Source of the DNA: a virus
Virus record (IMG/VR): IMGVR_UViG_3300027832_000009
Location: 10,549-74,548 of that record
DNA: 64,000 nucleotides
Direction: 5' to 3' (one strand)
Shown: piece by piece, positions 62,423 through 63,781 of the stretch
Layout of the letters: each line of letters begins with the position of its first letter
How positions within the stretch are numbered: position 1 is the first letter of the stretch
The notes under the pieces: generated by a model
What the model saw: only the letters and a program-made list of their open reading frames with translations
Database searches by the model: none
Told to the model about the DNA's origin: nothing
Program-made: the position numbers and the translations under genes

Positions 62423-63781
62423 TCGCAGATATGAGACCTCTGCGCAGGTATTGGTTATTCGTATCCACGATTAGCCCTCCCCGGTGCTCAGATACGATGC
62501 CTCTGAGCTGGCGATGATGTGTCGCGGATGTGTCGCTGACTACTGTACAGTAGATGTGCGTTGAAAGACCCGCCACATTGTGGGGCTATATGTGGCCGGA
62601 GCGCTAGCGACGAAGCCTCAACATATAGCCCCACGCATGTGGTACTACTCGCTAGAGTAGAACCCGGAATATCGCCTAAATGACCTTTTTTTGACCCATT
62701 TTTCATAAGTGATTTACTGGACTTTTCACATTCTGATCAACTTGCGACACATTAACGAGGCGACACACAGCTGTACAAACGTCTGCTGCGTTTGTTGATT
62801 TCTGCTGTACGGCGCCGTACAACGCAGTTTTGGTGAAAATCGTGAAGTTGCACCCTCGTTCATGTCACTAATCTGTACAGATTAGCCGGTACATCAGAAT
62901 TGGGGTTTAGACTGTTTGGAATGCTGTAGCCGGTGTCCCGTATGCTGCTGTGTGTTCAGTCTTTTGTTCATTACTGTACGACATTTGCAGCTACGAGGCC
63001 TCTGTGGGGTCGCTGTCAGATCACGGTAGTGGCTATCTCCGTCACTTCGCAGATACGAAGCCTCTGCGGGGGCGCGGTGACTTGCGCGAGGGTAACAATC
63101 CAGCAAGGTTATCGGTGATCGGCTCGTGGTTCTCGTCCTGCAGATACGAAGCCTCTGCGGGGGCACTGTTGGATTTACTGTGCTCGACACACGTCTCTCT
63201 TCGAGTCCGCGGATATGCGGTCTCTGTTACGTGCGTGTTACGTGCGTGTTACGTGCGTGTTACGTGCGTGTTACGTGCGTGTTACGTGCGTGTTACGTGC
63301 GTGCGATCTTCAGGCTTGCATCTCAGATACGACGCCGCTGAGGGGGCACTGTTACGCGGACTGCTGCGATACGTCGATCTGCAGATACGAAGCCTCTGCA
63401 GAGGCATTGTCGGATCCCATCGACCATCCATCCGCAGATATGAGGCCTCTGTGGTGGCACTGATACGCGGACTGCACCGGTACTCGGATCTGCAGATACG
63501 AAGCCTCTGCAGTGGTATTGTTGGGTTTGCTGTGCTCACTGCTGTTGACTCCAAGTCCGCAGATACGAGGCCTCTGTGGTGGCATTGATACCATACGAAA
63601 GGTGGGCGCAGTATGTCTGAGGGTCTCAGATACGAAGCCCCTGAGCGGGCACTGATACGCAAACTGCATAGGCACTTGCCTCTGCAGATACGAGGCCTCC
63701 GCAGAGGCACTGTTGGGTTTACTGTGCTCGCAGCTGTCGAGAGTTTTGATCTGCAGATATGAGGCCTCTACAGCGGCACTA
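62423..63781 (+). repeat. array of 14 copies of 31-nt hairpin element (family 1)
   Basis: CYGCAGA-TAYGARGCC-TCTGYRG-NGGCAYTG at 62423, 62486, 62985, 63047, 63138, 63207 (degenerate), 63321, 63379, 63432, 63490, 63557, 63624, 63682, 63751. Confidence 0.92.
63226..63302. repeat. 11-bp tandem repeat x7
   Basis: GTTACGTGCGT perfect copies. Confidence 0.95.

Follow-up and report, generated by a model that had tools for sequence, protein, structure and literature searches.

The repeat locus and its genomic setting

The window analysed here, a stretch of 64,000 nt covering positions 10,549 to 74,548 of the IMG/VR virus record IMGVR_UViG_3300027832_000009, is part of an 87,335-bp linear record with a CheckV completeness of 44%. 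The record represents a large tailed phage, with a gpA-type large terminase, SbcCD-like nucleases, a family A DNA polymerase and nearly all genes on the minus strand, and several studies of freshwater, lakes and estuaries yielded metagenomes containing its window DNA, none of the runs found to contain it being an RNA run. Close to the right end of the window, a repeat array (array 1, 62420-63783) lies between a Rep_1-like gene on its left and an RNase HI-like gene on its right; a previous sequence-only reading had recognized both neighbours, in the opposite order. The locus is organized as follows:

61310-62374, minus strand: P0001, a Rep_1-like protein of 354 aa with a Cys-rich motif, left neighbour of array 1 (its language-model look-alikes are Rep_1 clusters)
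62420-62518, minus strand: last two units of array 1, 62483 and 62420 (sequence reading, covariance model R1)
62519-62981, no strand assigned: 467-nt non-repeat segment splitting array 1 (direct reading, repeat finder pair I8)
62982-63170, minus strand: middle block of array 1, units 63135, 63044 and 62982 (R1 scores of 41.6, 43.6 and 28.8 bits)
63199-63303, no strand assigned: decayed repeat remnant CCGCGGATATGCGGTCTCTG, then eight tandem copies of the 11-nt TGTTACGTGCG, within one "spacer" (family D3)
63318-63783, minus strand: tight block of array 1, eight units (63318 to 63748) with a period of 53-69 nt (repeat finder, R1)
63792-64000, minus strand: 3' end of P0003, an RNase HI-like protein of 221 aa, right neighbour of array 1 (TM 0.66/0.86 to RNase_H clusters), whose gene extends beyond the window to genome position 75005

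Pfam returned no match for P0001, and IMG/VR searches for close relatives with P0001 and P0003 found none. The DNA of 62300-64000 had no match among isolated phages, an Rfam scan of 60000-64000 gave nothing relevant, and no sigma-70 consensus promoter was found in 62200-64000. By eye, the repeat unit itself was rejected as a sigma-54 or sigma-70 promoter.

By combining direct reading, a repeat finder and the covariance model R1, we delineated 13 full units and one decayed remnant in array 1, direct reading and the repeat finder placing 11-12 copies in register. The units, 36 nt each on the minus strand, start at 62420, 62483, 62982, 63044, 63135, 63318, 63376, 63429, 63487, 63554, 63621, 63679 and 63748. 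The fourteen copies initially counted thus correspond to thirteen full units and a remnant at ~63199-63225, and the array that they were said to fill is not continuous, being interrupted by the 467-nt segment (62519-62981) and by the 8-copy 11-nt tandem repeat (63214-63303). The spacing of 53-69 nt first given from 63321 was recovered from 63318 onward, with successive periods of 58, 53, 58, 67, 67, 58 and 69 nt. With at most one mismatch, 21 occurrences of the core motif AGATAYGANGCC were counted in the window, versus 1.6 on average and at most 5 in shuffled sequences, none of 100 shuffles reaching 21.

The tight block forms the 5'-most part of array 1 on the minus strand, directly after the stop of the RNase H-like gene, and 45 nt separate the end of the last unit from the ATG of the Rep_1-like gene that follows. 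Repeats are 61-90% alike, unit 62982 being clearly decayed, and about half of the window units end in an exact ...GAC, several lacking this canonical end. They are separated by irregular spacers of ~17-39 nt, whose repeat-proximal 12-20 nt are unique in most linkers and whose repeat-distal parts fall into two re-used classes, ATACGCGGACTGC and TTGGGTTTACTGTGCTC. Both classes had been noticed in the sequence-only reading, and they originate from two-unit segmental duplications (family D4). Between the blocks, part of the 467-nt segment is richer in AT; the segment also carries several TGTACA-centred palindromes and an inverted repeat whose 14-bp arms match perfectly (62580-62593 / 62621-62634), and may be a regulatory or origin region. 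Logan contigs from four runs break at the remnant and 11-nt tandem repeat (63199-63303). Across array 1, contigs from four studies covering 2017-2022 differed by neither base changes nor indels, hence no sign of spacer turnover.

A pseudoknotted RNA scaffold shared with Cas12m loci

On the minus strand, the unit follows the plan 5' CARUGCC-N-(6-7 nt arm)-GGCUUCGUA-(arm)-A(C/U). The conserved loop and tail first described were confirmed, as were the four arm pairs CTGCAGA/TCTGCAG, CCGCAGA/TCTGTGG, TCTCAGA/GCTGAGG and GCTCAGA/TCTGAGC. The tail contains the 5' strand of a pseudoknot (GCC), and the first three bases of the loop form its partner (GGC). With a linker of 1-2 nt over a helix of 6-7 bp and a loop of 6 nt over a helix of 3 bp, these loop lengths should, by our reasoning, make an H-type pseudoknot feasible on the minus-strand RNA only. 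In the tight block, the GCC/GGC pairs are kept in each unit, except for one A.C in 63487, together with 6-7 helix pairs each, and unit 62420 carries a compensated pseudoknot pair, ACC/GGU.

Covariation supported both helices. Among 45 repeats from the window and from two related phage loci (L008 and L021, see below), 89.8% of the cells were paired, with 64 double-change cells versus 16.6 in shuffles. Extending to 98 distinct repeats from eight records gave 90.8% paired cells and 110 double-change cells versus 26.8, none of 500 shuffles being as high in either set. In the larger set, all seven helix pairs and two of the three pseudoknot pairs covary, the latter from GC to AU and from CG to UA, and the remaining one is swapped in the second array of the genome (CCC/GGG). 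In most repeats the outermost "pair" is not a Watson-Crick one, which fits the G:A pair of Cas12m scaffolds. These results bear out the early proposal that pairing, not sequence, is conserved, and show that a second covariation pointed out at that time (SCC...GGS) is real and corresponds to the scaffold pseudoknot.

The orientation of the element was given by its relatives. In all loci where the repeat flanks a cas12m gene, this gene is antisense to the motif as first written, and the RNA must therefore be read on the minus strand of the window, the reverse complement of the strand initially considered; cas12m is co-oriented with this reading in the relatives. Stem mismatches of the L008 array, read on the cas12m strand, comprise 22 G.U versus 6 A.C, and those of the solitary units of the window genome 7 G.U versus 1 A.C. 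Array 1 alone, with ~3 G.U versus 2-3 independent A.C events on the minus strand, shows no strand bias and is uninformative on this point, and family-wide, G.U pairs exceed unpaired cells on the minus-strand reading.

This architecture is that of the crRNAs of Cas12m, the effector of type V-M (formerly V-U1) CRISPR systems, whose known loci include those of MmCas12m2, GoCas12m, MsCas12m and PmCas12m (PDB 8hhl, 8pm4, 23vw). The window unit GACAAUGCCUCUGCAGAGGCUUCGUAUCUGCAGAUC has in common with the published crRNAs of Go (UGUCAACGCCAGCGCGGAGGCGUCAAAUCCGCGAC) and Tf (UUGCAAUGCCUAGCUCAGAGGUUUAAAGACUGAGAC; PMC11013384 supplement) a 5' CAAYGCC, a helix and a ...GAC end. In the Cas12m2 structure, the scaffold derives from the repeat and combines a pseudoknot with a 6-bp helix, a non-canonical G:A pair and a terminal C(-1) (PMC10442227), and the mature Cas12m crRNA consists of ~30-33 nt of repeat and ~17 nt of guide (bioRxiv 10.64898/2026.03.26.714355). 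The repeat of array 1 shows this sequence plan as well as this fold, with the pseudoknot, the 6-bp helix and the terminal A-C.

Scanning IMG/VR for the hairpin core showed that other phage contigs carry arrays of this element too. In two phage lineages, L008 (genome G001) and L021 (genome G002), the array lies directly downstream of a gene for a protein of 574-636 aa that matched solved Cas12m structures and, in G002, a Cas12f1-like TNB domain in Pfam. The G001 protein matched PDB 23vw with an E value of 2.6e-75, and also Cas12m2 (8hhl). Its array comprises 28 degenerate units with a ~47-nt period, versus nine near-identical 36-nt repeats and eight spacers in the 180-kb G002. A third phage (L007, genome G003) has the same layout of cas12m and array, seen by eye only, and a scan of bacterial genomes identified a 7-unit degenerate array directly behind a 682-aa Cas12m on the chromosome of Schlesneria sp. 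T3-172 (L059). Degenerate repeats thus also stand beside cas12m in G001, G003 and Schlesneria, so that near-identity of repeats is a loose criterion in the V-M subtype.

The element had previously been interpreted either as a processed non-coding RNA array or as an array of ssDNA or cruciform protein-binding sites, and a CRISPR array had been dismissed. The former is the best reading of the units, which we predict to form a structured, processed RNA array. The dismissal does not stand, for the unit matches Cas12m crRNA scaffolds and flanks cas12m in relatives, and the phage species itself encodes cas12m (see below). Under the DNA-site reading, the Rep_1-like protein would bind or nick the units as hairpins or cruciforms, or use them as iterons, at a replication origin. 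DNA hairpins whose loops are conserved are recognised by HUH enzymes, and array 1 does lie between Rep_1-like and RNase H genes, with the 11-nt tandem repeat and several palindromes nearby. However, the element stands beside cas12m without any Rep gene in G001, G002 and the bacterial chromosome (and, by eye, in G003), an observation that also holds against an HUH/Rep or REP-RAYT association. In addition, its units match published crRNA scaffolds, and they are scattered at gene starts genome-wide. The covarying GCC/GGC pairs, kept in the one orientation where loop lengths make the H-type pseudoknot feasible, and the excess of G.U pairs over unpaired cells on the minus strand likewise speak for an RNA, and we regard a DNA-site role as highly improbable. 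Judged from sequence and predicted fold, array 1 is a detached and degenerate type V-M (Cas12m) CRISPR-type repeat array, in minus-strand sense.

The cas12m gene of the phage species and its dispersed repeats

Searches of the 87-kb record for Cas12m and the TNB domain found no cas12m, and Pfam searches of the ORFs beyond the terminase gene gave an AAA ATPase, GP88 and others, with no Cas12m. A large protein search with a Cas12m profile returned 26 matches, none of them on a contig of the size expected for the window phage. The gene was found by using a promoter-repeat module of the window genome as a probe (described below), which retrieved metagenome contigs and the 82.7-kb IMG/VR record G009. 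This sister strain aligns to positions 36-54531 of the window genome with 95-98% identity, then continues past the left end of the contig, where a cas12m gene is located 3.4 kb beyond. The encoded protein (643 aa) matched the Cas12m profile with an E value of 1.8e-109 and PDB 23vw with an E value of 2.8e-44, its gene lies on the sense strand of the arrays, and alignment places H, D and D at its RuvC positions. The same H-D-D arrangement is reported for MmCas12m, and Cas12m effectors act by binding DNA rather than cleaving it (PMC11013384).

Sequencing runs containing the window phage also contained this gene. Runs X1-X6 contained 0.81-1.00 of the words sampled from array 1 and 0.59-0.66 of the cas12m words, the latter share corresponding to a divergence of ~1.3-1.7%. 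The G009 stretch adjacent to cas12m (L061) and the window were covered at equal depth over a 70-fold range in four runs (243/236, 17-20/16.5, 206/205 and 3-6/3-5). The window strain therefore very likely carries cas12m too, as deduced from G009 and these shared runs rather than from a direct reading of the gene, at a position that would be ~27 kb from array 2 and ~76-79 kb from array 1. The gene immediately upstream of array 1 is the RNase H-like one, not cas12m. In the loci examined, no adaptation genes were seen. Relatives closer to the window phage by their large terminase were fragments, two of them (G006, G007) without repeats or cas12m, and the third (G008), complete to 39%, with 13 dispersed repeats and again no cas12m.

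Array 1 is a worn, duplication-built V-M repeat array and only one part of a set of ~30 or more repeats genome-wide. The other copies located in the window are:

1315-1381, plus strand: promoter and solitary-repeat module, TTGACC-16-TACAGT at 1315-1342 and repeat at 1346-1381 (R1)
3464-3499, minus strand: solitary unit whose arms differ (CUUGG/CCAAG), immediately before an ATG (R1)
4314-4380, plus strand: second promoter-repeat module, TTGACT-16-TACAGT at 4314-4341 and repeat at 4345-4380 (R1)
12675-13281, minus strand: array 2, eight units of a second subfamily, CAAUCCC-A-GCCUUGC-GGGUUCGAA-GCAGGGC (sequence reading, strain comparison)
16280-16315, 16599-16634, ~17005-17040 and 17274-17309, minus strand: four solitary units (R1)
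59926-59961, minus strand: weak solitary unit, 19.4 bits (R1)

Array 2 has the same architecture as array 1, with different arms and a CCC/GGG pseudoknot instead of GCC/GGC, and a further copy lies inside a gene near 13730-13765. It counts eight units in the window strain versus five in the sister strain, the difference being a block duplication or deletion.

Solitary repeats amount to at least 10 in the record and to ~20 in 25 kb of the adjoining genome part (L060 and L061 together), where R1 gave ~9-12 matches per 10 kb. Minus-sense copies often stand a few to ~90 nt upstream of an RBS and ATG, or just past a terminator. The four units of 16280-17309 illustrate both settings: all separate minus-strand genes and precede RBS and ATG by a few to ~90 nt, and one of them follows a terminator hairpin. 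In the sister strain, one repeat is found ~80 nt upstream of cas12m. Besides the two promoter-repeat modules of the window, two more are located outside it, at genome positions 3151 and 82789. The promoter at 1315 is antisense to the flanking minus-strand genes, and the near-consensus promoters of the four modules would give antisense transcripts starting at the scaffold. Solitary copies also occur in the cas12m-encoding relatives G002 and G003.

Spacer matches and candidate roles of the repeats

The first 16 nt following every unit, taken at three offsets with at most one mismatch, matched only their own loci in the window genome and the sister-strain extension. Allowing two mismatches, the array spacers gave three weak matches in the window genome, versus ~0.6 expected. 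No protospacer of array 1 was found in the window genome, the sister-strain extension or three related phages, and no partial match of a guide position to a promoter was found in the window genome or the sister-strain extension. Scans of IMG/VR with 16-mers of two spacers produced 4 and 17 matches, all ending at 16-17 nt, as chance matches would. Among related phages, a duplicated spacer of G002 matches G001 over 16 of 16 bases with an adjacent TTG PAM, which suggests that phage V-M arrays can be aimed at rival phages. The other cross-phage spacer matches numbered 31, versus 15-27 with shuffled spacers, and were judged no excess.

We lean, with moderate confidence, towards a role of array 1 in supplying guide RNAs to the phage's own non-cutting Cas12m. 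Transcription would run into the array from the RNase H-like operon upstream of it, Cas12m would bind each scaffold and cut the precursor upstream of it, and the products would be RNAs of ~50 nt, with the first ~17 nt after the repeat acting as guides. The resulting Cas12m-RNA complex would bind matching DNA and block transcription or replication, with no cutting. Since the loci examined showed no adaptation genes, the array would change by duplication, deletion and point mutation under a selection keeping the fold. Such selection would account for the compensatory changes of the arms and, combined with drift and duplication, for the re-used linkers.

Several observations on array 1 weigh against guide supply, namely the irregular spacers with their re-used repeat-distal classes, the missing protospacers, turnover and upstream consensus promoter, the units devoid of the canonical ...GAC end, the stem mismatches of array 1 with no strand bias, the 87-kb record without cas12m, and the ~76-79 kb to the inferred gene when arrays are adjacent to it in the other cas12m loci examined.

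The units could instead be genuine Cas12m-binding scaffolds that supply no guides. As an RNA sponge or regulator, they would buffer or time the phage's own Cas12m, or mark processing or stabilising sites in polycistronic mRNAs; as a decoy, they would, in the manner of RNA anti-CRISPRs, titrate the Cas12m made by the host or by rival phages. The re-use of linkers (D4), the duplication or deletion of units, as in array 2 (eight versus five between strains), the lack of detected protospacers and the identity of array 1 in contigs from four studies are consistent with this alternative. So are the solitary repeats, at least 10 of which directly precede an RBS and ATG or follow a terminator, with four more driven by a near-consensus promoter, and the density of ~9-12 R1 matches in 10 kb of the adjacent genome part. 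For a decoy in particular, a host target may exist, since V-M systems of the same family occur on bacterial chromosomes such as that of Schlesneria, and repeats standing alone in viral genomes are reported to work as RNA anti-CRISPRs for other CRISPR types (PMC10651486). A pure anti-Cas12m decoy fits poorly with a phage species having an intact cas12m of its own. Against sponge and decoy versions alike, G002 and G003 combine cas12m with arrays and solitary units, the repeat-proximal 12-20 nt are unique in most linkers, as expected of guides, and a spacer of a related phage has a PAM-flanked match in another phage. Taken jointly, these versions are possible but in our view doubtful as a replacement for guide supply. 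What speaks for such a regulatory, sponge or decoy role are the re-used linkers, the growth by duplication, the spacers without target match and the many solitary repeats at gene starts.

Alternatively, array 1 might be the decaying relic of a formerly functional V-M array, now passive and unused. Its heavily decayed unit 62982, the remnant at 63199, the interruptions by the 467-nt segment and the 11-nt tandem repeat, the sense-strand A.C mismatches in four units and the distance to cas12m all go in this direction. However, at least 5-6 helix pairs are retained in 12 of the 13 units and 37 of the 39 pseudoknot cells are Watson-Crick. Changes within array 1 are compensated (GCAGA/UCUGC versus UCAGA/UCUGA; ACC/GGU), and the array remained without differences in contigs from four studies, making a passive relic quite unlikely.

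A broader and more speculative reading, which we consider rather improbable, is that the Cas12m scaffold serves as a genome-wide RNA tag, the arrays, gene-start repeats and antisense repeats forming one network through which the non-cutting Cas12m would act on transcripts of the phage itself, by controlling, processing or timing them, or would buffer its own level, its role not being limited to immunity against other elements.

So far, type V-M systems have been described mainly on plasmids and in a few bacteria. Rather than staying in a single array next to the gene, the repeat of the window phage occurs in two separate degenerate arrays of different subfamilies and as dozens of solitary copies at gene boundaries, all of which keep the RNA fold gripped by Cas12m. 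If these RNAs load into Cas12m, an RNA-guided DNA-binding protein would be used in a way not yet described, possibly for regulation of the phage's own genome, dosage buffering or competition between phages. The natural repeat variants also provide a mutational map of the scaffold changes allowed by selection, useful for engineering compact Cas12m tools.

With the known V-M loci, the phage species shares the repeat plan and fold (5' CAAYGCC, pseudoknot, 6-bp helix, ...A-C end), a compact effector with a TNB zinc finger and an H-D-D RuvC as in the non-cutting MmCas12m, the absence of adaptation genes in the loci examined here and an expected guide of ~17 nt. It differs from them by an array located tens of kb from cas12m, by 61-90% alike repeats with compensatory changes and irregular, partly re-used spacers in place of near-identical repeats and regular unique spacers, by a second array with another repeat subfamily in the same genome and by dozens of solitary repeats.

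Three reported systems come close to this organization. The V-M locus of myxophage MV-1, described in September 2026 as the first bacteriophage Cas12m (bioRxiv 10.64898/2026.09.14.751636), likewise pairs a phage-encoded Cas12m with an array that lacks adaptation genes and for which no protospacers were identified, and our G002 (180 kb, nine repeats, eight spacers) resembles its description. As described, MV-1 differs by one consensus repeat and eight spacers beside the gene, and the available part of its description makes no mention of detached degenerate arrays, repeat subfamilies or dispersed solitary repeats. Racrs, as presented in the available part of their report, are also solitary CRISPR-repeat mimics in a phage genome, and four of the repeats found here have their own promoter; type V-M is not among the types documented in that part (PMC10651486). 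A Racr would be a mimic in a virus devoid of the cognate cas genes and would inhibit the host system, whereas the window phage species carries the matching cas12m, and many of its units lie inside operons, just ahead of genes. Finally, crRNA-like regulatory mini-arrays and the repeat-like RNA elements of CRISPR-cas loci (bioRxiv 10.1101/2023.03.03.530964) differ from the repeats of the window phage, which are spread genome-wide and have no guide-position promoter match, but resemble them as degenerate or stand-alone repeats near cas genes, like the one preceding cas12m in the sister strain.

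Interruptions of the main repeat array

The main Cas12m-type array (array 1) is interrupted by two segments, the first of which divides it.

62519-62981: dividing segment with an inverted repeat and palindromes
63214-63303: 11-nt unit TGTTACGTGCG repeated 8 times in tandem, within array 1

In the dividing segment, a perfect inverted repeat of 14 bp encloses a loop of 27 nt, and at least five palindromes share a TGTACA core (e.g. AATCTGTACAGATT and GTACGGCGCCGTAC). These elements look like operator or origin sites beside the Rep_1-like gene. The short-read contigs from four runs end at the 11-nt tandem repeat.

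Repeats elsewhere in the phage and its sister strain

Cas12m-type repeats also occurred outside array 1, among them a second array and solitary units associated with a promoter (window coordinates unless stated as genome, i.e. those of the whole record).

12675-13281, minus strand: array 2, of a different repeat subfamily (sister-strain counterpart, G009 29746-30068)
1315-1381, plus strand: promoter-repeat module
4314-4380, plus strand: promoter-repeat module
genome 3100-3186: promoter-repeat module
genome 82734-82824: promoter-repeat module

In array 2, the pseudoknot pair is exchanged for CCC/GGG, the linkers carry a repeated CTCACATATACGCTCTCACA, and the unit count differs between strains, with 8 in the window strain versus 5 in the sister strain. 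The modules, 86-115 nt long and present in four copies in the phage genome, combine a near-consensus promoter (TTGACC/TTGACT-16-TACAGT) with a solitary Cas12m-type repeat starting 3-4 nt downstream. All four are flanked by minus-strand genes and lie antisense to them, each directed into the 3'-terminal part of the gene upstream; additional copies were present in the sister strain and in two metagenome records from an adjoining part of the phage genome (L060 and L061).

The sister-strain record (G009, IMGVR_UViG_3300027983_000009) overlaps that of the window at genome positions 36-54531 and reaches ~36 kb past its contig, the two combined representing ~123 kb of the phage. This extension contains cas12m, and solitary repeats are dense there.

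Repeats and spacers in other lineages

Related repeats were also found on a bacterial chromosome, that of Schlesneria sp. T3-172.

L059 223-2742: Cas12m gene followed by 7 same-family repeats

The encoded protein has 682 aa, with H at the first RuvC position. Since these chromosomal repeats are also mutually divergent, their fold being retained through G.U pairs, repeat degeneracy seems to be characteristic of this V-M clade rather than of the phages alone. The closest TerL relative (49% identity; G008, the 87.9-kb L054 record) harbors 13 dispersed same-family repeats, all on a single strand and several as doublets; cas12m was absent from this 39%-complete fragment.

Between two other Cas12m phages, a duplicated spacer of G002 (spacers 1 and 6; G002 109648-110201) matches 16/16 bases at G001 170192, immediately 3' of TTG and within a 263-aa ORF; ~0.02 exact matches were expected across all spacers. 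This sequence match may reflect inter-phage targeting.

A multidomain ORF

45540-50204, minus strand: 1554-aa ORF

This ORF combines uracil-DNA-glycosylase-like, 3'-5' exonuclease, family A DNA polymerase and LAGLIDADG domains, the last probably corresponding to an intein or a homing endonuclease insertion.
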